Shown here one piece after another: positions 5,430 to 57,173 of a stretch of 64,000 nt of DNA; the first letter of the stretch is position 1; each line of letters opens with the position of its first letter. Both the position numbers and the translations under genes were made by a program. The notes beneath the pieces were generated by a model. The model saw only the letters and a list, made by a program, of their open reading frames with translations, ran no database searches and had not been told where the DNA came from. Source of the stretch: an uncultured Actinomycetes bacterium (GTDB taxonomy: Bacteria; Actinomycetota; Thermoleophilia; Gaiellales; JAICJC01). The DNA is taken from positions 24,756-88,755 of the forward strand of contig CAVTSO010000013.1 of the NCBI GenBank assembly GCA_963737445.1. The letters are read 5' to 3'.

Positions 5430-6812
5430 GTGCTGTTTCGACAGGTGCTGCATCCCGACCTCGGTTGCGCCTCCTACGTGATCGCGGACACGGCCGCCGG
5501 GCTGGGCGCGGTGGTCGACCCCAAGCGGGATGTCGCCGAGTACCTCGAGCTGGCGAGCGCCCACGGCTTCACGATCACGCACGTGATCGAGACCCACAAC
5601 CATGCCGACCACGTGTCCGGTCGCGCGGGCCTGGTCGAGGCCACCGGCGCGCGATCCTGGGTGAGCCCGCTGGCCGGGGCCGGGTATCCGCACGACCCGT
5701 TCGCAGACGGTGCCGAGATCGAGCTGGGCGAGGTGCGGCTGCGTGCGCTGCACGTGCCCGGCCATCGTCCCGAGCACACCGCCGTGGTGGTGGTCGACGG
5801 TTCCCGGTCCAGCCTGCCGTGCGCCGTTCTGACCGGCGACAGCCTGTTCGTGAACGACGTCGCCCGCCCCGACCTGGCCGTCGAGAAGCACGAGGGAGCG
5901 GCGCAGCTCTACCACGCCATCGGCCGGCTGCTGGAGCTGGACGACGGGGTCGAGGTGTTCCCCGGGCACACCGGTGGATCGCTCTGCGGCAGCGCTCGCA
6001 TGAGCGAGACAACGTCCTCCACGATCGGGTTCGAGCGCGCCAGCAACCCGATGCTGCGGCTGGGCGAGGAGTCCCTGTTCGTGACGGAGCTGATCCACGA
6101 CCTGCCGCCCCAGCCGCCCAACTTCAAGGCCATCGCCGAGGCCAACCGGGCCGGGACACGCGGCGTCGCCTCAGAGGTCGCGCCGTTCCCGCCCGAGCGG
6201 CTGGCCGCGGCCCTCGCCGCCGGCGCGCTGGTGATCGACGGGCGCGCGGCACCGGAGTACGACGCCGCGCACATACCGGGCACGATCGGCATCGACGCCT
6301 CCGTCAACGGGTTCGGGACGAAGGCGGCCTGGATCGCGGAGCCCGGAGGCGAGCTGGTGCTCGTCGCAGACGACGAGCCGCCGGCGCTGCACATGCAGGG
6401 ATTGCTGGAGTCGGTCGGCCTGTCCGCGGACGGCATGCTGGCCGGCGGATTCGCGGCCTGGACGGCGGCCGGGCTCGGCGTCGAGCGGTTCCAGGTGATG
6501 GACGTGGACGAGCTGTACGCCGCCGGCGACCGGGTGCAGATCCTGGACGTGCGCGACCAGCACGAGTGGGACGAGCAGCGCATCACCGGATCGCAGCACG
6601 TGGTCTACCACGACGCCGGGCGGGTGATCCCGCCGCTCGATCGCGACCGGCCGGTGGCCGTGATCTGCACGACCGGGCGCCGCAGCGCGATGGCGGTGGG
6701 ACTGGTGCGCCGATCCGGCTTCGCCGAGGTGATCCACGTCACCGCCGGCGGCGTCGGCACCTGGGCGGCGCGGGGCTACCCGATCGAGCAGACGCAGCCG
6801 GCCGCGGTATGA
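5430..6812 (+). CDS. MBL-fold (ETHE1/persulfide dioxygenase-like) hydrolase fused to two rhodanese domains
   Basis: HNHADHVSG metal motif at the N-terminus. Two C-terminal rhodanese-like modules follow; the second has the active-site loop VAVICTTGRRS. Confidence 0.8.
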   Translation: MLFRQVLHPDLGCASYVIADTAAGLGAVVDPKRDVAEYLELASAHGFTITHVIETHNHADHVSGRAGLVEATGARSWVSPLAGAGYPHDPFADGAEIELGEVRLRALHVPGHRPEHTAVVVVDGSRSSLPCAVLTGDSLFVNDVARPDLAVEKHEGAAQLYHAIGRLLELDDGVEVFPGHTGGSLCGSARMSETTSSTIGFERASNPMLRLGEESLFVTELIHDLPPQPPNFKAIAEANRAGTRGVASEVAPFPPERLAAALAAGALVIDGRAAPEYDAAHIPGTIGIDASVNGFGTKAAWIAEPGGELVLVADDEPPALHMQGLLESVGLSADGMLAGGFAAWTAAGLGVERFQVMDVDELYAAGDRVQILDVRDQHEWDEQRITGSQHVVYHDAGRVIPPLDRDRPVAVICTTGRRSAMAVGLVRRSGFAEVIHVTAGGVGTWAARGYPIEQTQPAAV

Positions 6813-7135
6813 GTGCTCCCGAGCTGTCGGCAACCGACGTGGCGGCCGCGCTGGAGCGCGGCGAGCTGGCCGCCGTCGACGTGCGCGAGCCGGGCGAGTG
6901 GGACGCCGGTCACATTACCGACGCGCTCTGGATCCCGATGGGCGAGTTCGCCGACCGCGTCTCGGAGCTGCCGGAAGGGCGGCTGGCGATCGTCTGCCGC
7001 AGCGGCGCACGCAGCGGGGTGGTGGCAGACTGGCTGGAGCGGTCCGGGGTCGATGCCGTCAACCTGGCCGGTGGCATGCAGGCCTGGCACGCCGCCTCGC
7101 TGCCGATCGAACCGGTGGACGGCTGGATCGCGTGA
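6809..7135 (+). CDS. single-domain rhodanese sulfurtransferase
   Basis: DVREPGEWDAGHI...LAIVCRSGARSG active-site loop. The ATG at 6809 overlaps the upstream stop (ATGA). Confidence 0.8.
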   Translation: MSAPELSATDVAAALERGELAAVDVREPGEWDAGHITDALWIPMGEFADRVSELPEGRLAIVCRSGARSGVVADWLERSGVDAVNLAGGMQAWHAASLPIEPVDGWIA

Positions 7136-8040
7136 GCGTGCGGGTGGGCACCTGCTCCTGGGCGGACGAATCGCTCAGCAAGCTTTGGTACCCGCCCGGT
7201 GTCGGCTCGGCCGAGGCGCGCCTGCGCTGGTACGCGGAGCATTTCGACACGGTCGAGGTCAACTCCAGCTACTACGCCCTGCCCACCGAGGAGATGGCGA
7301 CCGCCTGGGCGCAACGTACGCCGCCCGGGTTCGTGTTCCACGTCAAGGCGTTCGGGATGATGACCCGCCACCCGGTGCGGGTCGAGCAGCTGCCGCCGGA
7401 CATGCGCTCGGAGGCCGAGTTCGACGAGCGGGGCCGGATCGACCGCCCCTCACGGGAGCTGCGAAGCGCGGTTTTCCGGCGCTTCCTGCGCGCCGTCGAG
7501 CCCCTGCGTGAGGCCGGGAAGCTGGGCGGCGTGCTGATGCAGCTGCCCCAATACGTGGTCTTCAAGCCGTCGTCGTTCGCCTATCTGGAGTGGGCGCGGG
7601 AGCAGCTCACCGATCATCACATGCTGGTCGAGTTTCGCCACCGCAGCTGGCTCACCGACGAGCACCGCGAGCAGACGCTGGCCTTCCTGGAGCGGCTGCC
7701 GGCCACCTACGTGATCGTCGACGCACCGCGGGTGACGTCGGACAACGTCGCTCCCACCGTCGTCGCGCGCACGTCGGACACCGCCTACCTGCGGCTGCAC
7801 GGGCGCAACGCGGCGACCTGGAACGCTCGTGGCGGCGGCGCCGCGAAGCGGTTCGACCACCTCTACTCGCAGGACGAGCTCGCGGAGTGGGTGGGGCCGC
7901 TGCGGGAGCTGGCCGGCTGCGCCCGCGAGGTGTTCGCGATGTTCAACAACAACGGCCGCAGCACCGACGTCAACGGCAATCCATTCGCCCAGGCACCGGC
8001 CAACGCCGCTCAGCTGCTGGAGCTGCTGAAGGAGTCATAG
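7132..8040 (+). CDS. DUF72 family protein
   Basis: VRVGTCSWADESL...WYAEHFDTVEVNSSYYALP is the typical DUF72 N-terminus. The GTG at 7132 overlaps the rhodanese stop (GTGA). Confidence 0.8.
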   Translation: MSVRVGTCSWADESLSKLWYPPGVGSAEARLRWYAEHFDTVEVNSSYYALPTEEMATAWAQRTPPGFVFHVKAFGMMTRHPVRVEQLPPDMRSEAEFDERGRIDRPSRELRSAVFRRFLRAVEPLREAGKLGGVLMQLPQYVVFKPSSFAYLEWAREQLTDHHMLVEFRHRSWLTDEHREQTLAFLERLPATYVIVDAPRVTSDNVAPTVVARTSDTAYLRLHGRNAATWNARGGGAAKRFDHLYSQDELAEWVGPLRELAGCAREVFAMFNNNGRSTDVNGNPFAQAPANAAQLLELLKES

Positions 8041-18690: not shown

Positions 18691-18763
18691 TACCCCCAAC
18701 GGGATTCGAACCCGTGTTGCCGCCTTGAAAGGGCGGAGGCCTAGGCCGCTAGCCGATGGGGGC
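18691..18763 (-). tRNA. tRNA-Glu (anticodon UUC)
   Basis: The reverse complement is GCCCCCATCGGCTAGCGGCCTAGGCCTCCGCCCTTTCAAGGCGGCAACACGGGTTCGAATCCCGTTGGGGGTA. It folds into a cloverleaf with a CTTTCAA anticodon loop. CCA is not encoded. Confidence 0.9.
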
Positions 18764-19087: not shown

Positions 19088-19160
19088 GGGCCGTTAGCTC
19101 AGCTGGTAGAGCAGGGGACTTTTAATCCCAAGGTCGCAGGTTCGATCCCTGCACGGCCCA
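19088..19160 (+). tRNA. tRNA-Lys (anticodon UUU)
   Basis: GGGCCGTTAGCTCAGCTGGTAGAGCAGGGGACTTTTAATCCCAAGGTCGCAGGTTCGATCCCTGCACGGCCCA. Canonical arms are present. CCA is not encoded. Confidence 0.9.
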
Positions 19161-24652: not shown

Positions 24653-26098
24653 ATGTTCAGCCTTGACACCGGCCGCGACGTGCTCACTCCCGACCAGCTC
24701 GACCAGGTGCACGAGCGGGCGATGACGGTGCTTGAGGAGATCGGCACGGACGTGCGCCACCCGGCGGCGCTCGAGATGCTGGCCGGGCTCGGCCAGAAGA
24801 TCGACGGCGAGCGTGTCCACTGGGATCGCGAGTTCGTGATGGAGATGCTGGCCCAGGCGCCGCATGCGTTCACGCTGCGGGGTCGCAACCCCGAGCGGGC
24901 GGTGCGGCTGGGCGACTCGAAGCCGGTGCTGACGCCGGTGGGCGGCTCGCCCTTCTGCTCCGACCTCGAGCGCGGACGCCGGGACGGCACGTACGCCGAC
25001 CACGTCGAGCTGATCAAGATGGCGCAGGCCGCCGACCTGATCACCTGCAACCAGAGCGGCACCGTCGAGGCCGGCGATCTCGATGAGAACAGCCGCCACA
25101 TGGACATGGACTACTCGGTGCTGCGGTACTCCGACAAGCCGCACGTCTGTTACGGCACCTCCGGGCCGAAGGCGCGGGACGCCGTCGCCCTGGCGGCGAT
25201 CGCGTGCGGCGGTCGCGAGGCGATCGAGCAGACGCCGGCGCTGATGGGGATCGTCAATCCCAACAGCCCGCTGGTCTGGGACTTCCTGATGGTGGATGCG
25301 TTGTCGGAATGGGCATCGGCAGGACAGCCCGTGGTGATCACGCCGTTCCTGCTGGCCGGGGCGACAGCGCCGATCACGATCGCCTCCGGGCTGGTGCTGA
25401 AGGTGGCGGAGGCGTTGTCTGGCGTGGCACTGGTGCAGGCGATCCGGCCCGGTACGCCCGCCCTGTTCGGATCGTTCTTCACCGCCGTGGACATGCGCAC
25501 CGGCGGTCCCGCCTTCGGCACGCCTGAGTCGGTGCTGGGGACGCTGGCCGGGGGCCAGCTGGCACGGCGGTACGGCCTGCCCTACCGGGGCGGCGGCGGC
25601 CTCTGCTCGTCGAACTCGCTGGACATGGCGTCGGCGGCGGAGACGGCCATGACGCTGTGGGCGACGATGCTGTCCGGCTCGCACCTGGTGATGCACGCCG
25701 CCGGCTGGCTCGAGGGCGGCCTGACGGCGTCGTACGAGAAGTTCGCGATCGACCTCGAGATGCTGCGGATGTTCGCGATGATCGACGAGGGCATCGACAC
25801 CAGCGAGGAGCGGTTCGCGATCGACGCGATGCGGGAGGAAGGGCCGGGCGGGATGTTCCTGGCCGCCGACCACACGCTCGCGCACTTCCGGGAGTGGATG
25901 TTCATGAGCCCGCTGTTCCGCTCGCAGGCCTACGTGACCTGGCAGAAGCAGGGCTCGGCCACCACCGCCACGCTGGCCACCGCCGAGTGGAAGAAGCTGC
26001 TCGAGAGCTACGTGGATCCCGGCATCGACCCGGCCGTCGACGAGGAGCTGCAGGAGTACATGCAGCGGCGCAGGGCCGAGATTGAGGCGGCCCTCTGA
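24653..26098 (+). CDS. MttB-superfamily methyltransferase, non-pyrrolysine type (paralog 1; glycine betaine/quaternary amine:corrinoid methyltransferase-like)
   Basis: Full-length 481-aa MttB-like sequence with no in-frame stop (...NPNSPLVWDFLMVDAL...GQPVVITPFLLAGATAPIT...FGTPES...). Confidence 0.85.
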   Translation: MFSLDTGRDVLTPDQLDQVHERAMTVLEEIGTDVRHPAALEMLAGLGQKIDGERVHWDREFVMEMLAQAPHAFTLRGRNPERAVRLGDSKPVLTPVGGSPFCSDLERGRRDGTYADHVELIKMAQAADLITCNQSGTVEAGDLDENSRHMDMDYSVLRYSDKPHVCYGTSGPKARDAVALAAIACGGREAIEQTPALMGIVNPNSPLVWDFLMVDALSEWASAGQPVVITPFLLAGATAPITIASGLVLKVAEALSGVALVQAIRPGTPALFGSFFTAVDMRTGGPAFGTPESVLGTLAGGQLARRYGLPYRGGGGLCSSNSLDMASAAETAMTLWATMLSGSHLVMHAAGWLEGGLTASYEKFAIDLEMLRMFAMIDEGIDTSEERFAIDAMREEGPGGMFLAADHTLAHFREWMFMSPLFRSQAYVTWQKQGSATTATLATAEWKKLLESYVDPGIDPAVDEELQEYMQRRRAEIEAAL

Positions 26099-29572: not shown

Positions 29573-30465
29573 TGGGACAGATCGCGACACTGCTGGGAGA
29601 CACCCGGCCGGCGCTCAGCGACGGCGCCATCGGCACCATGCTGCAGGCGGCCGGTCTCATGCCCGGCGCCTCGCCCGAGATCTGGAACGTCGAGCGCGCC
29701 GATGCCATGCGCGTGATCCACACCGCCTACGCCGATGCCGGGGCGCGTCTGCTCACCACGAACACCTTCGGCGGCACCCGCCCCCGCCTCGCCCTGCACG
29801 GCCACGAGGATCGCGTGCACGAGCTGAACGAGGCCGGAGCCCGCATCGCCCGCGACGTGGCCGACGCCTGCGGTGCGCTGGTGCTCGGCAGCATCGGCCC
29901 TACCGGCGACCTGATGGAGCCGCTGGGGCTGCTCGGCCACAACGACGCCGTCGACCTGTTCGCCGAGCAGGCCGGCGGCCTGGCCGCCGGCGGCGCCCAC
30001 ATCCTGCTGTTCGAGACGTTCAGCGATCTGGGCGAGGTGCGGGCCGGCGTCGAGGGTGCGCGCCGTGCCGCACCCGACGTGCCCGTGGCCGTGACCATGA
30101 CCTTCGACCTGAAGGGCCATACGATGATGGGCGTCAGCCCGTCGCAGGCGCTGGCCGAGATATCCGCGCTCGATGTCGAGCTGATCGGCGGGAACTGCGG
30201 CAGCGGGCCCGACGAGATCGAGGCGGTGATGGTGACCATGTCCGCCGAGCGTCCGGACGGCGTGCTGCTGCTCGCCCAGAGCAACGCCGGCCTGCCGCAG
30301 CTGGTCGGCGACGAGTTCCGCTACGGCGGCACGCCCGAGGTGATGGCCGACTACGCCCTGCGCATGCAGGAGCTGGGTGTCGATGTGATCGGCTCATGCT
30401 GCGGCAGCACGCCGTCGCACACGGCAGCGATGCGCGAGGCGCTCGGCCTGCACGTGCAGACCTAG
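29572..30465 (+). CDS. homocysteine S-methyltransferase domain protein (stand-alone MetH N-terminal-like module)
   Basis: DGAIGTMLQ...TNTFGG...ETFSDL...GGNCGSGP...GSCCGSTP. The Zn-binding Cys, Cys-Cys pattern of the Hcy-binding barrel is present. Confidence 0.8.
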   Translation: MGQIATLLGDTRPALSDGAIGTMLQAAGLMPGASPEIWNVERADAMRVIHTAYADAGARLLTTNTFGGTRPRLALHGHEDRVHELNEAGARIARDVADACGALVLGSIGPTGDLMEPLGLLGHNDAVDLFAEQAGGLAAGGAHILLFETFSDLGEVRAGVEGARRAAPDVPVAVTMTFDLKGHTMMGVSPSQALAEISALDVELIGGNCGSGPDEIEAVMVTMSAERPDGVLLLAQSNAGLPQLVGDEFRYGGTPEVMADYALRMQELGVDVIGSCCGSTPSHTAAMREALGLHVQT

Positions 30466-30481
30466 CCTGATCAACCATCTA
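30466..30481. repeat. solo copy of the GATGGTTGATC terminal motif, on the minus strand directly after the ferredoxin stop
   Basis: CCTGATCAACCATCTA matches 13 of 15 positions of the right terminus of the element at 41250-41264. Confidence 0.4.
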
Positions 30482-31897: not shown

Positions 31898-33337
31898 TCA
31901 GTCGCCGAGCTCTTTCCGGCGCCGGGTGACGAAGTCGGTAAGCTCCTGGCGCAGCTCCGGGTCGATCGCGGGCGGCTCGTACTGCTCCAGCCGCTCGCGC
32001 CAGATCTCGCCGGCCCGCTCCGTCGCGTCCCGCTCGCCCAGCCGCTTCCAGCGCTCGAAGTTCTCTGTCGACGACAGCAGCGGCCGGTAGAAGCAGTCGC
32101 GGAACCGCTCCAGCGTGTGCGCCGCGCCCAGGAAGTGCCCGCCCGGGCCCACCTCCTCGTGCGCCCCGAATGCGAGCGAGGCCTCGTCCACCTCGAGCGG
32201 GGTGAACTCGACCTTCAGCATCCGCAGCACCTCGATGTCGACGATGAACTTCTCGTAGCACGAGACCAGGCCGGACTCCAGCCAGCCGGCCGAGTGCATG
32301 ACCCAGTTGGTGCCGGCCAGGAAGGTCGGGATCATGGTCATGCAGGCCTCGTAGGCCGACTGCGCGTCCACGGTCTGGCTGGACGTGAAGCCGCCGCCGG
32401 ACCGCCACGGCAGGCCGAAGTGGCGGGCGATCTGGCCGGTGCAGAACAGGCCTGTCGCCGACTCCGGGGTGCCGAAGCTGGGCGACCCCGACTGCATGTC
32501 GGTGTTCGAGAGGAACGACCCGAAGATCACCGGCGCGCCCGGCCGCAGCAGCTGCGCCAGCGCGATCCCCGCCAGCGCCTCGGCCATCTGCTGGACGAGC
32601 GTCGCCGGGATCGTTACCGGCGACATCGCGCCCATCAGCAGGAACGGCGTGATCACGACCGGCTGGCCGGCGCGCACGTACTCGAACATGGCCGCCAGCA
32701 TGCGGTCGTCGTAGCGCAGCGGCGAGTTGACGTTGATCAGCCCGATCACGCCCGGCGTGCGCTCGATCGACTCGCGTCCGCCGAGCAGCATCTCGGTCAT
32801 GCGCACCGAGTCGGCCGCGTTGGGCCCGGAGGTGACGGAGCCCATGTAGGGCTTGTCGGTCAGCGTCTGCAGCGCGAACACCATGTCCAGGTGGCGGGAG
32901 TCGAGCGGCCGGTCGTTGGGCTCGCAGATGGTGCCGCCGGCCGAGTCGAGCTCGTCGAACGACTGGGACAGCATGGTCAGCCGCTCGAAGTCCTGCATCG
33001 TGGCGTCGCGGCGGATGTCGCCCTCGCGCACGAACGGCGGCCCGTAGACCGACGCGAACGCCATGTGATCGCCGCCGATGTGGATGTTGTGCTCGGGGTT
33101 GCGGGCCTGCACGTCGAACTCGTGCGGCGCCTTCGCCACCTGTTCGAGCACGAAGTCGGGGTCGAGGAAGACCTTATCGCCGTCGGTCTTCTGGCCGGCC
33201 TTGGCGAACACCTCGACCGCCTCCGGCAGGATGAACTCGACGCCGATCTCCGAGACGATGCGCCGCCAGCCCCCGTCCAGGGTGGCGATCGCCTGCTCTG
33301 ACAGAATCTCGTAGCGCGGCATCCGGTTGACGAACAT
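31898..33337 (-). CDS. MttB-superfamily methyltransferase, non-pyrrolysine type (paralog 2)
   Basis: Full-length MttB-like sequence (..NVNSPLRYDDRMLAAMFEYVRAGQPVVITPFLLMGAMSPVT..FGTPES..) with no in-frame stop. I chose the ATG at 33337, which follows GGGAGAGGG. Confidence 0.85.
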   Translation of the reverse strand: MFVNRMPRYEILSEQAIATLDGGWRRIVSEIGVEFILPEAVEVFAKAGQKTDGDKVFLDPDFVLEQVAKAPHEFDVQARNPEHNIHIGGDHMAFASVYGPPFVREGDIRRDATMQDFERLTMLSQSFDELDSAGGTICEPNDRPLDSRHLDMVFALQTLTDKPYMGSVTSGPNAADSVRMTEMLLGGRESIERTPGVIGLINVNSPLRYDDRMLAAMFEYVRAGQPVVITPFLLMGAMSPVTIPATLVQQMAEALAGIALAQLLRPGAPVIFGSFLSNTDMQSGSPSFGTPESATGLFCTGQIARHFGLPWRSGGGFTSSQTVDAQSAYEACMTMIPTFLAGTNWVMHSAGWLESGLVSCYEKFIVDIEVLRMLKVEFTPLEVDEASLAFGAHEEVGPGGHFLGAAHTLERFRDCFYRPLLSSTENFERWKRLGERDATERAGEIWRERLEQYEPPAIDPELRQELTDFVTRRRKELGD

Positions 33338-40153: not shown

Positions 40154-40593
40154 GCGAGCCCGCGACCGGCGGCTGCCTGTGCGGCGCAGTGCGTTACGAG
40201 GTGCGGGGGCCGCTGCGCGACATCCTGATCTGCCACTGCGTCGAATGCCGGCGCTGGCACGGCAACGTTGCGGCCAGCACCGCGGCTGCCCGCGGCGATC
40301 TGGTCCTGACCGGGCAGCGCGGGCTGCGCTGGATCGCCGGCCCCGAGAGCGACGCGCACGCACGCCGGGGCTTCTGTGGCGAGTGTGGTTCCAGCCTGTT
40401 CTGGGACGCGCCTGGGCGTGACTACGTCGCGATCGCGGCCGGGTCGCTGGACGGCGAGACCGGGCTGCGCATCGCCGGCCACTGGTTCACCTCCCAGAAA
40501 GGCGACTGGTACGAGCTGCCCGACGATGGCCTGCCACACCACGAGCGCTCGGCCGCGGTCGAGGGCGGCTCGCCGAGTGGTAAAGTGATTTGA
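40150..40593 (+). CDS. GFA (glutathione-dependent formaldehyde-activating enzyme/CENP-V) family protein
   Basis: GGCLCGAVRYEV...CHCVECRRWHG...FCGECGSSLFW. The GTG overlaps the ADH stop (GTGA). Confidence 0.8.
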   Translation: MSEPATGGCLCGAVRYEVRGPLRDILICHCVECRRWHGNVAASTAAARGDLVLTGQRGLRWIAGPESDAHARRGFCGECGSSLFWDAPGRDYVAIAAGSLDGETGLRIAGHWFTSQKGDWYELPDDGLPHHERSAAVEGGSPSGKVI

Positions 40594-40599
40594 CGATAT

Positions 40600-41076
40600 A
40601 TGGAACAGGAGACGTCACAAGGGCGCTTCGCCGATGGCCTTGCAGAGCGCGAGCCGCTGGGCCCGCCGCTGATCGGGGCGCTGCTGCGCATGCCGGTCGA
40701 TGCCGTGCGGCGGCAGATGATCGAGCGGCTGCACGAGCACGGCTTCGCTGACATCGATCCGGCCCACCTGATCGTGCTGCGCTATCCCGGCCCGCAGGGT
40801 GAGCGCCCGTCCGATCTGGCCGCGCAGCTGGGCATGAGCAAGCAGGCGCTCAACTACCAGCTGGGGCAGCTCGAGCGGCGCGGCTACCTCGAGCGGCGTC
40901 CCGATCCTGAGGACATGCGTTCCCGGCGGATCGTGCTGACGCGGCGCGGCGTTGCCGCGGCCCACGTGATCCGTGACGCCGTGGCCGAGCTGGAGACCCT
41001 GTGGGAGCGGGAGCTGGGGGAGAAGCGCTACGCGCAGCTGCGCGGCCTGCTGGTCGAGCTGAATCGCGTGATCTAG
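40600..41076 (+). CDS. MarR family transcriptional regulator
   Basis: PSDLAAQLGMSKQALNYQLGQLERRGYLERRPDPEDMRSRRIVLTRRG. Confidence 0.85.
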   Translation: MEQETSQGRFADGLAEREPLGPPLIGALLRMPVDAVRRQMIERLHEHGFADIDPAHLIVLRYPGPQGERPSDLAAQLGMSKQALNYQLGQLERRGYLERRPDPEDMRSRRIVLTRRGVAAAHVIRDAVAELETLWERELGEKRYAQLRGLLVELNRVI

Positions 41077-41078
41077 CT

Positions 41079-41264
41079 GAGATGGTTGATCGGTTGTTCG
41101 CGAGCCTGGCCGCTGCGAACGGCTTGAAGTCGGAGGAGGCTGGGGTAGCTACGGCTGCGAACCGTCGTCTCCGTCCGCGATCTGCGTGATCGCAGATCGC
41201 TCATGACCGGCGCAAGGCGATGCCTTGCGCCTTGGACACCACGGAGATACCGATCAACCATCTC
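41079..41264. mobile_element. MITE-like 186-bp element, copy A: perfect 15-bp terminal inverted repeats and two internal 10-bp-stem hairpins
   Basis: The TIRs are GAGATGGTTGATCGG (41079-41093) and CCGATCAACCATCTC (41250-41264). The hairpins are GCGATCTGCG-tgat-CGCAGATCGC (41177-41200) and GGCGCAAGGC-gat-GCCTTGCGCC (41209-31). It carries no ORF. Confidence 0.6.
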
Positions 41265-43200
41265 GGTCGATCGACTCGGCCAGCAGTGTGGCCACGTCCG
41301 CCACCCGCAGCGTGCTGCCGCTGGTGCGGACGCCGTCGTCGAGCATCACGGTGCAGAACGGGCAGGCCACCGCCAGCGTCCCGGCGCCGGTCTCATCGGC
41401 CTGCCGCACCCGCTCCTCGTTGATGGCGCTGCCGCGCTCCTCCATCCACATGTGCGCGCCGCCGGCGCCGCAGCAGAACGTGCGCTTGCCGCTGCGCTCC
41501 ATCTCGACCGGCGTGCCCACCGCCGCCACCAGCTGCCGCGGATCCGCCGTCACGTCGTTGTGGCGCGCGAGGTAGCAGGAGTCGTGGTAGGTGATCTGGG
41601 TGTCCCCCGCCTTCGGCTCGATCCGGCCGTCGCGGACCAGCTCGGCCAGCAGCTCGGTGTGGTGCATCACCTCGTAGCGGCCGCCGAAGTCCGGGTACTC
41701 GTTGGCCAGCGTGTTGAAGCAGTGCGGGCAGCTGGCCACGATCTTCGTCACCCCTGAGCCGTTCAGCGTCTCGACGTTCTGCTCCGCGAAGGCCTGGAAC
41801 ACGTACTCGTTTCCCATCCGCCGGGCCGGGTCGCCGGTGCACGACTCGCGCGGGCCCAGGATCGCGAAGTCGACCCCGGCCGCCTGCAAGAGCTTTGCCG
41901 TCGACACCGCCGTCTGCCGGGCGCGCTCGTCGAACGAGGCGGCGCAGCCGACCCAGTAGAGCACCTCGGGCGCCGGGTCGCCCGGCTCGAGCACCGTCAC
42001 GCCCAGCCCCTGCGTCCAGTCGCCGCGCTCCTGCTGGGCCTTGCCCCAGGGGTTGGACGATCGCTCGACGTCCCGCAGCATCGGCTCGGCCTCCGCCGGG
42101 AACCGCGCCTCGGCCATCACCAGGTGGCGGCGCAGGTCGACGATGTGGTCGATGTGCTCGATCGAGACCGGGCACTCGTGGACGCAGGCGCCGCACGTGA
42201 CGCAGTCCCAGACCACGTCGTCGGTGACCGCGTTTGGCACCAGCGGCGGCGGATCGGCTCCCTCGGCACCGGAGAGCAGCTTCGGGCCCTGGTCGAGCAG
42301 GTGATCGCGCAGTCCCATGATCAGCAGCTTGGGCGACAGCTCCTTGCCGGTCGCATAGGCCGGGCAGACGTCCTGGCAGCGACCGCACTCGGTGCAGGTT
42401 GCGGTGTCCACCATCTGCTTCCAGGTCATGTCGGTGAGCGTGCCGGAGCCGAGCCGGATCTCGTCCTCCGGCACCTCCGGGTCGTCGAACACGAGCGGCT
42501 CGAGACGGCCGCGTGCGCGCGTTCGCCCGAAGAACACATTGACCACGGCGGTAATGATGTGCAGGTGCTTCGAGTAGGGCAGGTACGCCAGGAAGCTCAG
42601 GATCAGCAGCACGTGCGTCCACACGAACACGCGCTCGAGCACCTTCGTGCCATCGCCGCCGCCGAACAGGTTGGAGAGCGCGTTTGCGACCGGAGACCAC
42701 GACGCCGGCCACTCGTTCAGCCCCAGCGCGATCCGCGTGGCGTGCCACAGGAGCAGGGTGGTGACGATGCCCGCGATCAGGGCCAGGATGAAGTCGGCCT
42801 CGCCCATGTGGCTGCCCTCGAACCGCGCCGGCCGCTGCACCTTGCGGATGAAGAACGCCGCGCACACGCTCAGCAGCACCAGCAGCGCGAACAGGTCGAC
42901 CAGGAACGCGAACCAGCCCTGGTGGCCGAGCCAGGGCAACGTCGCGTCGCGATCGACGGCCGCGATCATCGCCATGATGATGGTCGGGAACAGCACGATG
43001 AATCCCCAGAAGATCAGCGCGTGCATCACCCCCGGGCCCAGCCGCTGCAGCAGCTTGCGCTGGCCGATCGCGACCACCGCCTCCTGGCGCAGGCGCTGCG
43101 GCACATCGTCGAACCTGGGCGCGGGCCTGCCGAGGCGCATGATCCGGACGAGCAGCCGGGCGCGACGGGCGAAGATGCCGCCGGCCACCGCCAGCGCCAC
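41254..43200 (-). CDS. membrane-anchored Fe-S oxidoreductase (EtfD/DgcB-like; heterodisulfide-reductase-related with CCG domains)
   Basis: N-terminal TM helices, two ferredoxin motifs (CTECGRCQDVCP, CVTCGACVHECP) and two CCG-type Cys-rich domains (..WVGCAAS.., ..TFCCGAGG..). The start is uncertain; I took GTG 43200. The tracked ORF's extension to 43500 overlaps etfA. Confidence 0.8.
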   Translation of the reverse strand: MALAVAGGIFARRARLLVRIMRLGRPAPRFDDVPQRLRQEAVVAIGQRKLLQRLGPGVMHALIFWGFIVLFPTIIMAMIAAVDRDATLPWLGHQGWFAFLVDLFALLVLLSVCAAFFIRKVQRPARFEGSHMGEADFILALIAGIVTTLLLWHATRIALGLNEWPASWSPVANALSNLFGGGDGTKVLERVFVWTHVLLILSFLAYLPYSKHLHIITAVVNVFFGRTRARGRLEPLVFDDPEVPEDEIRLGSGTLTDMTWKQMVDTATCTECGRCQDVCPAYATGKELSPKLLIMGLRDHLLDQGPKLLSGAEGADPPPLVPNAVTDDVVWDCVTCGACVHECPVSIEHIDHIVDLRRHLVMAEARFPAEAEPMLRDVERSSNPWGKAQQERGDWTQGLGVTVLEPGDPAPEVLYWVGCAASFDERARQTAVSTAKLLQAAGVDFAILGPRESCTGDPARRMGNEYVFQAFAEQNVETLNGSGVTKIVASCPHCFNTLANEYPDFGGRYEVMHHTELLAELVRDGRIEPKAGDTQITYHDSCYLARHNDVTADPRQLVAAVGTPVEMERSGKRTFCCGAGGAHMWMEERGSAINEERVRQADETGAGTLAVACPFCTVMLDDGVRTSGSTLRVADVATLLAESIDRDG

Positions 43201-43226
43201 CAGCAGCGCGATCAGGGCGACGGGCT

Positions 43227-44195
43227 CTATCCGGCGCCCGCCTTGCGCAGTTCGGCCGTGATCGCCGGGATCACCTCGTGCAGGTCGCCGATCACGGCGT
43301 AGTCGGCGTTGGCGATGATCGGCGCCTCCGGATCGACGTTGACCGCGATGATCCGCTTGGCGCCCTTGCAGCCGGCCATGTGCTGGGTGGCGCCGCTGAT
43401 GCCGCAGGCCAGGTACACCTCCGGCGCGATCTTGGTGCCGGTCTGACCGACCTGGTCGGTGTGCGACCGCCAGCCGGCGATAGTGACGGCCCGCGAGCAC
43501 CCGACGGCTCCGCCCAGCAGCGCCGCCAGCTCCTCGGCCGGTGCGAAGCCCTCCGGAGAGCCGGCGCCGCGCCCGCAGCTGACCACGAACTTGGCGTCCG
43601 CCAGGTTGACCCCGCCCTCGCTGCTCTGCTGCACGGTCTCGACCACCCGCACCACCAGGTCGGCTTCGCCCAGCGACGGCGAGAAGCGCTCGACGGCCGC
43701 CGGCGCACCGCCCACCTCGGCCGCCTCGACCGTGTGCGGCGCCACCGTCAGCAGCTTGACGGGGCCGTGCAGGCGCGCGTCCTCGAGCAGGCTGCCGCCC
43801 CAGCGGATGCGGGTCACGGTCAACGGGTCGCCCGCCTCTGCGGCGATGCAGTTCGCGGCCAGCGGCAGGTCGCCGATCGCCGCCGCGTGCGCCAGCACCT
43901 CGTTTCCGCGCTCGCTGCCGGCGGCCGCCACGGCCGACGGGGACAGCCGCTCGATCAGCTCGCCGATGCAGCGTGCCAATGCCACGGGCGCATGGGTGGC
44001 GAGCACCTCGTGGTCGGCGATGTGCGCGGTCGCCACCCCGTGGGCGCCCAGCGCGGCGGCGGCGTGCTCGGCGCCGGGACCGGCCAGCAGCGCGTGCAGC
44101 GGTGCGCCGCCGGCGATCTCACGGGTCAGTGCGATCGCCTGCAACGAGGCGTCGTCGGGCCGGCCGTCCTGATGCTCGACGTAGACCAGCGTCAT
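43227..44195 (-). CDS. etfA: electron transfer flavoprotein alpha subunit
   Basis: C-terminal FAD-binding signature ..VVSCGRGAG...GCSRAV...DQVGQTGTKIAPEVYLACGISGATQHMAG... The ATG overlaps the etfB stop (ATGA). Confidence 0.9.
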   Translation of the reverse strand: MTLVYVEHQDGRPDDASLQAIALTREIAGGAPLHALLAGPGAEHAAAALGAHGVATAHIADHEVLATHAPVALARCIGELIERLSPSAVAAAGSERGNEVLAHAAAIGDLPLAANCIAAEAGDPLTVTRIRWGGSLLEDARLHGPVKLLTVAPHTVEAAEVGGAPAAVERFSPSLGEADLVVRVVETVQQSSEGGVNLADAKFVVSCGRGAGSPEGFAPAEELAALLGGAVGCSRAVTIAGWRSHTDQVGQTGTKIAPEVYLACGISGATQHMAGCKGAKRIIAVNVDPEAPIIANADYAVIGDLHEVIPAITAELRKAGAG

Positions 44196-54577: not shown

Positions 54578-54645
54578 GGCAGGCCGTGGCCGGGGGGTGC
54601 GTCGGGCACCCCCCGGCCCTTGGCCATGCGGCGTAGGCTTCCATC

Positions 54646-55716
54646 ATGGATCCCCAGCCAGCCGGCATCAGCCGCGAGGAGCTGCAGCTCGCCGCCCGCA
54701 ACCACGGCATGCTGCTGGAGGCGCTGCGGCACGAGATCACACCGGTGGGACTGCACTACCTGCTGGTGCACTACGACATCCCGGCGGTGGGCGAGGAGTG
54801 GAGGCTGCGGGTGGACGGCCGCGTGCGTCGTCCCCTGGAGCTGGATCTGGACGCCATCCGCGCCCTCCCGTCCGTGACCCTGCCGGTCACGATGGAGTGC
54901 GCCGGCAACGGCCGCGCGACGATGGAGCCGCACGTGACCAGCCAGCCGTGGATCCTGGAGGCGGTGGGCACCGGTCAGTGGACGGGTACGCCGCTGGCGC
55001 CGCTGCTGGAGCAGGCCGCCCTGCTGGACGACGCCGTCGAGATCGTCTTCGAGGGCCTCGATCGCGGCCTGGAGGGCGGCGATGAGCAGACCTACGGGCG
55101 CAGCCTCACGATCGAGCAGGCGGTCAACGACGGCGCGATCCTGGCCTACGAGCTGAACGGCGCCCCATTGCCGTCGCAGCACGGCTACCCGCTGCGGCTG
55201 TTGGTGCCCGGCTGGTACGGCATGACCAACGTCAAGTGGCTGTCATCGATCAGGGCCGTCAGCGAGCCGTTCGCGGGCTACCAGCAGGCGCAGTCCTACC
55301 GCTGGCGCCGGGAAGAGCACGAGGCCGGAAGGCCGGTCACGCGCATGATGCCGCGGGCGCTGATGGCGCCGCCCGGCATCCCCGACTTCATGAGCCGCGA
55401 GCGCACCGTTTCGGCCGCAGAGCCGGTTTCGGTGCAGGGGCGGGCCTGGTCAGGTTGGGGGCCGATCGAGCTGGTGGAGTTCTCGGCCGACGGAGGCGAG
55501 AGCTGGCGGGCGGCGGAACTGGGCGACCAGGGCAGCCCGCACGTCTGGCGGGGCTGGTCGGTCAGCTGGCACCCCGCTGGGGCGGGTCGCTACGAGCTCT
55601 GCTGCCGCGCCACCGACGCGACCGGCGCCACCCAGCCGCTGCACCCGGAGTGGAACCTGGGCGGCTACGAGAACAACGCCGTCCAGCGCGTCCCGGTCAC
55701 TGTTAAGGATGGTTGA
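54646..55716 (+). CDS. sulfite-oxidase-family molybdopterin oxidoreductase (Oxidored_molyb plus Moco dimerisation domain)
   Basis: Moco-Cys motif TMECAGNGR and ..GYPLRLLVPGWYGMTNVKWL.. The stop TGA lies inside the repeat terminus GATGGTTGAT. Confidence 0.85.
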   Translation: MDPQPAGISREELQLAARNHGMLLEALRHEITPVGLHYLLVHYDIPAVGEEWRLRVDGRVRRPLELDLDAIRALPSVTLPVTMECAGNGRATMEPHVTSQPWILEAVGTGQWTGTPLAPLLEQAALLDDAVEIVFEGLDRGLEGGDEQTYGRSLTIEQAVNDGAILAYELNGAPLPSQHGYPLRLLVPGWYGMTNVKWLSSIRAVSEPFAGYQQAQSYRWRREEHEAGRPVTRMMPRALMAPPGIPDFMSRERTVSAAEPVSVQGRAWSGWGPIELVEFSADGGESWRAAELGDQGSPHVWRGWSVSWHPAGAGRYELCCRATDATGATQPLHPEWNLGGYENNAVQRVPVTVKDG

Positions 55717-55933
55717 TTCCACGAGCTACGCGCGGCGCGCCGTCCGCGATCTGCGTCATCGCAGATCGCTCCCGACCGGCGCAAGCCATGGCTTGCGCCC
55801 AGGGGTCTGGGACACGCTGGACGCCACGATCGTCCTTGGCCAGGACATGCCCAGCCTGCCCTGCGGACGCTCTCGACGTCCAGCGCGGCCCATCCTGCGC
55901 CCCGCATCCACGCATCCCGTGGAACCAACCATC
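55706..55933. mobile_element. MITE-like element, copy B (~228 bp): imperfect termini and the same two hairpins as copy A
   Basis: The termini are GGATGGTTGATTCC (55707-55720) and GGAACCAACCATC (55921-55933). The hairpins are GCGATCTGCG-tcat-CGCAGATCGC (55746-69) and GGCGCAAGCC-at-GGCTTGCGCC (55778-99). The shared core is CCGTCCGCGATCTGCGT.ATCGCAGATCGCTC..GACCGGCGCAAG. Confidence 0.55.
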
Positions 55934-55938
55934 GATAG

Positions 55939-57126
55939 TCAGATCGCCTCGCCGGTATCCCGGTCGAAGAAGTGCAACCGGCGGTTGTCCACCTGCAGGG
56001 TGATCGGCTGTCCCCGCTGAGCTGACGTGCGGGGGTTCAGCCGCGCCACGAACGAGGTCTGCGCGCCGCCGTCGACCTCGGGCAACAGCGCGGCGTCTGC
56101 GGCCAGGTCGATCGTGTCGTCGGTGATCACCGGCGGTGCGTCCACGCCGAAGTGCACGTAGACCTCCGAGCCCATCGCCTCACGAATGTCGACGACCACC
56201 CGGATGTCCGACCCTTCCAGGCGGTCGTTGATGAACTGCGGATCCTCGATGTCTTCCGGCCGGATGCCCAGCACCACCTTGCTGCCGTCCCGGGCGGCAA
56301 GCGCCGGCCGCTGCTGGAACGTCTCCTCGGGCACGCGCAGGCTGATGCCTGCGAACTCGACCGCGCCGCCGCTCTCGGAGCGGCGCACCACAGCGTCGAC
56401 CATATTCATGGCCGGCGAGCCGATGAACCCGGCCACGAACAGGTTGGCGGGACGGTCGTACATGTCCTGGGGGGCGTCCACCTGCTGCAGGACGCCGCGG
56501 TTCATCACGGCCACCCTGTCGCCCATCGTCATCGCCTCGGTCTGGTCGTGGGTGACGTAGATCATGGTCGTGCCCAGGTCGCGCTGGATCCGCGAGATCT
56601 CGGTGCGCATCTGGACGCGCAGCTTGGCATCCAGGTTCGACAGCGGCTCGTCCATCAGGAACGCCTGCGGTTCGCGCACGATCGCGCGGCCCATCGCCAC
56701 CCGCTGCCGCTGGCCCCCCGAGAGAGCCCGTGGCTTCTTCTTGAGCTGATCCTCGAGCCCGAGCGTCCTCGCCGTCTCGCGCACGCGGCGGTCGATCTCC
56801 TTGCGCGGCACCTTGCGCAGCTTCAGGCCGAAGGCCATGTTGTCGAAGCAGGTCATGTGCGGGTAGAGGGCGTAGTTCTGGAACACCATCGCCAGGTCGC
56901 GGTTTTTGGCCTCCACGTCGTTGATGACGGCGTCGCCGAGGCGGATGCTGCCGCCGGTGATCTCCTCCAGCCCGGCCACCATCCGCAGCAGCGTGGTCTT
57001 GCCGCAGCCGGACGGGCCGACCAGCACCATCAGCGTGCCGTCCTCGATCGTGAGGTCGACGGAGCGCACGGCCTCCGTGCCGTCCTCGTAGACCTTGGTC
57101 ACCTCGTCGAAGCCGATCTGCGCCAT
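55939..57126 (-). CDS. orphan ABC transporter ATP-binding protein of the MalK/UgpC/MsiK sugar-importer type
   Basis: Walker A GPSGCGKTT, signature LSGGQRQR, Walker B FLMDEPLS and a C-terminal TOBE-like domain. No permease or binding-protein gene is adjacent. Confidence 0.9.
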   Translation of the reverse strand: MAQIGFDEVTKVYEDGTEAVRSVDLTIEDGTLMVLVGPSGCGKTTLLRMVAGLEEITGGSIRLGDAVINDVEAKNRDLAMVFQNYALYPHMTCFDNMAFGLKLRKVPRKEIDRRVRETARTLGLEDQLKKKPRALSGGQRQRVAMGRAIVREPQAFLMDEPLSNLDAKLRVQMRTEISRIQRDLGTTMIYVTHDQTEAMTMGDRVAVMNRGVLQQVDAPQDMYDRPANLFVAGFIGSPAMNMVDAVVRRSESGGAVEFAGISLRVPEETFQQRPALAARDGSKVVLGIRPEDIEDPQFINDRLEGSDIRVVVDIREAMGSEVYVHFGVDAPPVITDDTIDLAADAALLPEVDGGAQTSFVARLNPRTSAQRGQPITLQVDNRRLHFFDRDTGEAI

Positions 57127-57173
57127 TGCGCCCCCATAATACGGTCGCACCGAGTCCACGAGGAGGAGCAGCG

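Follow-up and report, generated by a model that had tools for sequence, protein, structure and literature searches.

A stop-codon-associated 10-mer in Gaiellales as the probable end of small, IS630-like mobile elements

Several families of bacterial MITEs, among them the Correia elements of Neisseria, RUP of S. pneumoniae and Nezha of cyanobacteria, are derived from the IS630/Tc1-mariner group. Other repeats found beside genes are built differently: REP sequences are imperfect palindromes of 20–40 nt that share a conserved tetranucleotide at the 5′ end and form no unit bounded by terminal inverted repeats (TIRs), and the actinobacterial MIRU lie between genes and reach at their ends into the stop and start codons on either side. 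With respect to target choice, IS630 inserts at TA, preferably within CTAG (Tenzen & Ohtsubo 1991, as cited in PMC2170065). MITEPsy1 and ISPsy2 of Pseudomonas syringae belong to the IS5 family, and MITEPsy1, a 100-nt MITE, inserts at CTAG or YTAA and duplicates 4 nt (PMC3189936).

The repeat described here was found in a window, the whole 64,000-nt stretch of Gaiellales DNA that was analyzed (70.5% GC), in which the 10-mer GATGGTTGAT recurs beside stop codons. This 10-mer is probably the outermost part of the TIRs of small, non-coding, multi-copy mobile elements (MITEs) that are spread through Gaiellales/Thermoleophilia and insert in an IS630-like manner. The TIRs, size, copy number, absent coding capacity and insertion polymorphism of the elements all agree with the MITE class. 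Like Correia, RUP and Nezha, the elements are small and non-coding, carry TIRs, occur in many copies in intergenic positions by genes, form long hairpins and overlap gene ends; with IS630, as portrayed in that secondary account, they appear to share TA in CTAG as a target, to judge from a CTA/G flank consensus (a slash marks a junction between flank and element). They differ from all four in having no sequence similarity to them, in their Gaiellales host and in a modular interior with a covarying, sometimes tandem core, and from the IS630/Tc1-mariner group in having TA flanks at ∼45% of ends and no IS630-type partner in the sequences searched. MITEPsy1 is likewise a short MITE with a CTAG target, but its TIR sequences are unrelated, and the invariant first base of the Gaiellales elements (G1), paired with a C across the TA at only 54%, speaks against a 4-nt duplication. 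REP/BIME repeats (REPINs, mobilized by RAYT) are similar in being structured, in lying downstream of or between convergent genes and in maintaining their hairpins, whereas in Gaiellales non-palindromic TIRs of 11–19 nt bound a unit of 166–375 bp with a CTA/G flank. MIRU, also actinobacterial intergenic repeats with ends at codons of neighboring genes, are direct tandem repeats of 40–100 bp in operons and have no TIRs, in contrast to the single TIR-bounded units seen here. By analogy, the closest relatives in behavior would be IS630/Tc1-mariner-style MITEs, with MITEPsy1 as the nearest parallel for the CTAG target. A literature search for the motif in a relevant context, or for Gaiellales combined with MITEs, found no paper, and we therefore regard the repeat as a new family of a known kind of MITE.

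Four exact copies of GATGGTTGAT occur in the window, where 0.06 are expected and at least four were reached in 0 of 100 shuffles; a fifth copy, GATGGTTGGT, differs at one position (Table 1). All five lie at a stop codon or no more than 5 nt from one. The original prediction had placed the motif at or just after the stop codon of five genes, and every relation that it listed holds on reading the sequence together with its open reading frames. In two genes the letters of the motif themselves, GAT GGT TGA, furnish a ..DG-stop terminus, as had been proposed: the minus-strand Fe-S/CCG oxidoreductase gene ('EtfD-like', stop 41254–41256) and the sulfite-oxidase-like (SUOX-like) gene (aag GAT GGT TGA, stop 55714–55716). 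In the minus-strand ferredoxin gene, the G of the TAG (the complement of 30479–30481) is also the first G of the motif, the MarR-family gene stops at 41074–41076, 4 nt ahead of a motif copy, and the UgpC/MsiK-like ATPase gene stops at 55939–55941, 5 nt ahead of GATGGTTGGT. The further claim that such junctions are always convergent is correct for the window (three of three) but does not extend to the family, in which complete elements scorable on both sides occupy 7–9 convergent, 8 tandem and 0 divergent junctions. Gene identities in the window were checked, and its closest protein relatives stem from soil metagenomes and Gaiellales MAGs; an exact-sequence look-up of the window SUOX protein returned no record.

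Table 1. Elements, element parts and motif copies in the window
Feature	Position	Strand	Remarks
Element A, 182-bp MITE-like, type-1 derivative	41081–41262		Inverted motif pair; aligns with Gaiellales type-1 copies
Element A, left TIR GATGGTTGATCGGT	41081–41094	+	A at 41080 before the TIR
Element A, right TIR	41249–41262	−	GAT GGT TGA gives the last 2 codons (DG) and stop of the Fe-S/CCG gene
Element A, core	41177–41231	+	Hairpin 1, 41177–41200; hairpin 2, 41209–41231
Element B, 226-bp MITE-like, type 2	55708–55933		Inverted motif pair
Element B, left TIR GATGGTTGATTCCACG	55708–55723	+	GAT GGT TGA gives the SUOX-like ..DG-stop
Element B, right TIR GATGGTTGGTTCCACG	55918–55933	−	1 mismatch in the 10-mer
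Element B, core	55746–55799	+	Hairpin 1, 55746–55769; hairpin 2, 55778–55799
Solo remnant, one 11-nt TIR end GATGGTTGATC	30469–30479	−	
Unoccupied site upstream of the SUOX start, gcggcgTAGGCT	54625–54640		Occupied in L027, L002 and L001
Exact GATGGTTGAT	30470–30479	−	
Exact GATGGTTGAT	41081–41090	+	
Exact GATGGTTGAT	41253–41262	−	
Exact GATGGTTGAT	55708–55717	+	
GATGGTTGGT, 1 mismatch to GATGGTTGAT	55924–55933	−	

The window holds two element copies and one remnant per 64 kb. Element A separates the MarR-family gene (40600–41076, plus strand) from the Fe-S/CCG oxidoreductase gene (41254–43500, minus strand), and element B separates the SUOX-like gene (54646–55716, plus strand) from the UgpC/MsiK-like ATPase gene (55939–57126, minus strand). 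Both contain a core of the general form hairpin 1 (GCGATCTGCG-NNNN-CGCAGATCGC, with the loop TGAT in element A), an 8-nt spacer and hairpin 2 with a 10-bp stem. The two cores are 93% identical over 46 nt and run in the same strand orientation, and outside the core element A shows a weak alignment to element B in reverse complement, from which we take the interior to be modular; within the family the core occurs in both orientations with regard to the surrounding element and can be duplicated in tandem. Both strands of the elements fold much more stably than shuffled controls: element A gave z scores of −7.5 and −8.4 on the two strands, and the elements overall ranged from −5.9 to −8.4. A comparison with Rfam 15 returned only two tRNAs at the gathering threshold, and nothing meaningful at E values up to 1 over either element. 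These divergent tRNA genes (18691–18763, minus strand; 19088–19160, plus strand) are the sole Rfam matches in the window. Another inverted repeat, of 152 nt with 70% complementarity and arms 6.4 kb apart (25620–25771 and 32219–32370), probably reflects paralogous genes on opposite strands; in relatives, MTTB-family genes are present on either side of this cluster.

To collect the family, the pattern of hairpin 1 was scanned in one genome per species, which retrieved 69 loci, almost all from Gaiellales/Thermoleophilia soil MAGs. Single MAGs hold up to ∼20 copies, core-bearing copies numbering ∼12–20. The motif precedes and its reverse complement follows 46 of the 78 cores, at preferred distances that define subfamilies of 182–375 bp; in seven loci the core is duplicated in tandem, with cores 82 or 107 nt apart. 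The 54 distinct elements span 21–375 bp (median 256) and carry TIRs of 11–19 nt that are not themselves palindromic. The family as such is 166–375 bp in size and has an internal two-hairpin core. Such lengths are too short for a transposase, and there are stop codons in both ends. A plasmid collection searched by blastn with element B gave no match.

Counted as GATG[GA]TTGAT in ∼630 kb (the window plus the loci), the motif occurs 104 times: 94 instances have an inverted partner within 460 nt, 6 sit at contig edges and 4 are unpaired, namely the solo copy in the window, the 21-bp mini-element of L001, a deletion derivative in L003 and one instance with a diverged partner. Inverted pairs span 21–375 bp. 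At TIR position 5, where G and A alternate, the two arms agree in 47 of 54 elements. The 10-bp stem of hairpin 2 is kept by compensatory changes at 7 pairs among 59 distinct copies, such as UA replaced by CG (14 sequences) and GC replaced by CG or UA (22); hairpin 1 is uninformative on covariation because the search pattern fixed its sequence.

Most of the loci come from short-read MAGs, in which contigs can be chimeric across a repeat. Many contigs terminate inside an element, and in two pairs of short-read contigs, each pair from the same MAG (L005/L012 and L011/L051), one element flank is 100% identical and the other differs. The repeat breaks or mis-joins assemblies.

Insertion polymorphism is seen at several sites in relatives, in cross-species comparisons that carry 3–13 nt of differences besides the element. 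Upstream of the SUOX start, the site is empty in the window and in L003 (gcggcgTAGGCT), holds only the 21-bp mini-element GATGGTTGATCGTCAACCATC in L001, a 166-bp element without a core in L002 and a 221-bp element with a core in L027. At the SUOX 3′ end, occupied by element B in the window, L002 and L004 have no element, and the stops of SUOX and the ATPase gene overlap or abut; in L002 (2170–2185) they overlap in gtcagaTAGcc. In L004 (1205–1225), the 8-mer TCAGATAG (tcagatag) is tandemly duplicated and separates the two stops, which could be an element footprint or plain slippage. The locus of element A reads cctgaCTAGatcacg in L074, a 95%-identical orthologue that has no element and in which two convergent TAG stops overlap within one CTAG. 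Likewise, L019 has an element where L033 has gtCTAGggcgcgccCTAcga.

The solo copy occupies a 13-nt gap between an S-methyltransferase-family gene (stop 30463–30465) and the ferredoxin gene (stop 30479–30481, minus strand), with its outer end adjoining the TA of a CTAG at 30479–32. As originally noted, no hairpin core lies nearby. The window reads accTAGcctGATCAACCATC/TAGccctcg at this position, and L093, in which the protein has the same C-terminus (..GLHVQT), reads acgTAGcgccCTAGccctcg, with the empty-site sequence TAGcgccCTAGccctcg. Since the L093 empty site has that CTAG, the solo motif can be recognized as extra sequence abutting its TA. The suggestion that solo copies are decay footprints is borne out by this pair (cgccCTAGccctcg in L093, cctGATCAACCATC/TAGccctcg in the window), and the sequence comparison indicates that 30469–30479 is a truncated remnant in which 11 nt of one TIR are left. 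In L092, the two stops overlap at gcCTAAtcc. A long-read ENA contig, L083, matches the end of the window methyltransferase gene over its positions 6278–7648 at 97% DNA identity (98% for protein P0242). At the position of the solo motif it carries 216 nt of unrelated sequence, and its gene calls are fragmented and read through, which makes assembly frameshifts likely; with this unrelated insert and many frameshifts, it was set aside as uninformative.

How the elements insert can be read from their flanks. Over 103 ends, the flank logo from outside inward shows C at −3 (54%), T at −2 (46%) and A at −1 (87–89%), and G1 is invariant in all 94 ends that were detected without using position 1, which together yield a consensus junction CTA/GATGG...CCATC/TAG. 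This consensus is best understood as insertion at the TA of a rare CTAG. Among 55 elements, TA adjoins one end or both in 36 and both ends in only 10, with no dependence between the two flanks; in the window, neither A (ctgA/Tcgg) nor B (taaG/Gata) is flanked by TA. Across the element ends of the window (outer bases 41080 and 41263 for element A) and of loci L005–L073, conservation of A at −1 equals that of the TIR, whereas T at −2 is much less conserved, also at ends with no inward-reading gene, and so strong an excess of A over T is not what simple TA duplication followed by neutral decay predicts. A direct-repeat search at all offsets and for lengths of 2–5 found no target duplication other than TA, and a 3-bp TNA duplication was ruled out, given that TGA flanks are never matched by TCA opposite.

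The asymmetry means either that A...T are the outermost TIR bases, with insertion at CT/AG and no duplication, or that junction CTAGs erode through the same influence that makes CTAG scarce across the genome. A mobile element with a mechanism other than IS630-type TA duplication deserves weighing, either one that inserts at the center of CT/AG and ends in A-GATGG...CCATC-T or an IS5-type element that duplicates 4 bp (CTAG). Such a mechanism would account for the TIR-like conservation of A at −1 beside the weak T at −2, for the minority of elements with TA on both sides and for sides that vary independently, and an unusual or non-DDE enzyme that recognizes hairpins may lie behind the compensatory changes in hairpin 2; the IS5-type version has a precedent in the CTAG-targeting MITEPsy1 (PMC3189936). 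That version fits poorly, however, because the duplicate partners G1 (94/94) and C at −3 (54%) should match. Against insertion without duplication, T and A are present or absent together at type-2 right ends (8 TA, 5 non-A), and TIR-bearing elements without any target duplication are unusual. As the target is a palindrome, each of these models predicts the same sequence at CTAG sites. Taken together, we consider a mechanism of this kind unlikely. A somewhat smaller chance still is given to the view that these are not ordinary IS630-type MITEs at all, be it through CT/AG insertion without duplication and a core recognized by a novel enzyme, or through adoption of the core by the host as a bidirectional RNA hairpin for the 3′ ends of convergent genes.

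The preferred reading, TA insertion by an IS630-like enzyme, also offers an account of where the elements lie. CTAG is scarce in these genomes, with 25 occurrences in the window against 173 expected from composition or 57 from a Markov model, and 219 in all related sequence against 1697 (mononucleotide) or 598 (Markov); TA reaches about half its expectation in the window. Of 199 CTAGs surveyed over 554 kb, 34 mark element ends; by heuristic gene calls, 48 of the other 165 share bases with a stop codon and only 36 fall within coding regions. In the mechanism that we propose, a DDE transposase encoded elsewhere would bind the TIRs and insert the element at the TA of CTAG in the IS630/Tc1-mariner manner. 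Within a genome of 70% GC, in which CTAG is 3–8-fold depleted and about one-third of the remaining CTAGs overlap stop codons, such insertion should restore CTAG, and hence TAG, on both sides, since the first base of the element is G and the last is C. All other frames would be closed within three codons. With the stop restored and other frames closed, insertions at gene ends would be harmless and persist, and insertions inside genes or promoters would be lost. The expected outcome is elements that abut or overlap stops and at times add 1–3 residues such as ..DG, while internal deletion could produce solo ends such as 30469–30479.

Several searches for the partner of the elements, covering a small space (loci of ∼630 kb, one metagenome scan and viral contigs), returned no candidate. 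Relaxed TIR pairs 0.5–4 kb apart in all loci (∼630 kb), taken as a sign of an autonomous copy, were spurious only, and an all-against-all comparison of open reading frames in the loci revealed no multi-copy transposase. A metagenome scan with the type-1 TIR plus a base that excludes MITE interiors gave 7 matches and no autonomous element: a further variant of the MITE and six low-GC contigs that are unrelated. Two scans of viral contigs with TIR patterns of 17–19 nt likewise gave no autonomous element, the 60 matches being unrelated low-GC phage coding sequences without a partner TIR.

The sequence of the ends explains how they can terminate a gene in several frames. TA followed by the terminal G is TAG in one frame, GGT-TGA in the TIR closes a second, and in the common variant GATGATTGAT a further TGA arises in the third (A GA/TGA). 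A comparison of the motif with stop codons had been suggested, and in ∼630 kb of related sequence, with genes called by a crude heuristic (open reading frames of at least 70 codons, GC3 of at least 0.8 and first-position GC above second-position GC), 48.5% of element ends have the stop of an inward-reading gene within −12 to +6 nt, as compared with 0.8% for random positions, 1.0% for random non-coding positions, 2.2–3.7% for TA sites and 18.4% for CTAG sites. Among 102 scorable ends, 60 have an inward-reading gene, whose stop is the junction TA/G at 18, a TGA inside the TIR at 10, abutting the TIR at 8, 1–9 nt upstream at 14 and farther upstream at 10; overall, 35% of all ends share bases with a stop codon or directly adjoin one. 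The copies in L002 and L027 lie just upstream of a start codon (SUOX). It had been proposed that the element targets gene 3′ ends and remodels C-termini. It does sit at gene ends, and the tail of SUOX is altered, but the bias appears to stem largely from a rare CTAG/TA target combined with the survival of harmless insertions rather than from recognition of terminators.

With regard to C-termini, most SUOX orthologues end in ..VTVR-stop, and a K/R/Q-DG-stop tail is confined to the window protein and its two nearest relatives, P0001 and P0004, where the DNA reads GATGG(T/G)TGA. P0002 and P0003, which are just as close, end at R (aga TAG) and lack the motif. Because these element-less orthologues end in ..R-stop, the ..DG of the SUOX-like protein is element-derived, and the proposed comparison with orthologues therefore has a clear answer for this gene. 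It is less clean for the Fe-S/CCG protein, because orthologues vary greatly in the tail that follows ..LLAES; that of the nearest (95% identity) ends in ..SEPD, so the RDG tail is not ancestral. In a further case, the gene in L019 ends in ..EGAR-stop by way of the TGA of the TIR, and its counterpart in L033 ends in ..EGV-stop.

A different reading holds that the 10-mer by itself functions as a signal at 3′ ends, where selection would have placed it, either as part of a terminator or as a site to which a host protein or RNA binds. The position of the motif at or beside stop codons far above chance, the very stable folds of the elements on both strands and the covariation of hairpin 2 are what such a signal might show. 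The pairing statistics largely refute this reading: 94 of 104 instances are arms of an inverted pair, so that the motif does not act by itself as a 3′-end signal, binding site or recombination site, and the 4 that stand alone are classed as truncated elements. In addition, the motif is missing from the same gene ends in close relatives and occurs beside gene starts, such as upstream of SUOX in L002 and L027. No intrinsic terminator was found in 40500–41800, where a U-tract is absent, the hairpins of the elements have no T runs, and the Rfam comparison of the elements was likewise empty. We rate a stand-alone signal as very improbable. Given the stop enrichment, stable folds and hairpin 2 covariation, the whole element may nevertheless have a secondary role as a 3′ hairpin.

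The UgpC/MsiK-like ATPase gene beside element B is missing in two close relatives, L001 and L003. The L003 sequence (1475–1535) equals the window minus ∼55718–57127, with the junction exactly after GATGGTTGAT; in L001 (1668–1700), ∼25 nt of the element are kept and are followed by an FAD-oxidoreductase gene. Compared in this way, the losses are two different deletions that both begin in the element. That the motif is instead a site-specific recombination site bounding gene cassettes, which would explain the presence or absence of the ATPase gene and draws on the L003 junction at the inner edge of the 10-mer and on the missing gene in L001, is scarcely credible. The second deletion endpoint shows AT microhomology and no motif, and the endpoint in L001 falls ∼25 nt within the element. 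The ATPase gene is already present in relatives that lack the element, its neighborhood contains no recombinase, and the other motif copies show nothing of the kind.

Read as the probable end of an IS630-like MITE, the striking pattern of a 10-mer at stop codons receives a concrete explanation and leads to a hitherto undescribed family of repeats in the abundant and almost uncultured soil lineage Gaiellales. The finding opens no new mechanism; with its asymmetric flanks and covarying core, the family could yet prove less ordinary than a typical MITE. For annotation, C-termini that are added or altered by elements, with tails in the style of ..DG-stop, are to be expected. For assembly, the repeats break short-read contigs, some of which end there or share one flank only. 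The elements also mark sites of local deletion, as with the ATPase gene lost beside element B in two relatives. For the biology of these bacteria, the family provides a clear example of a TA/CTAG-targeting element that would live harmlessly at the gene ends of a high-GC genome.
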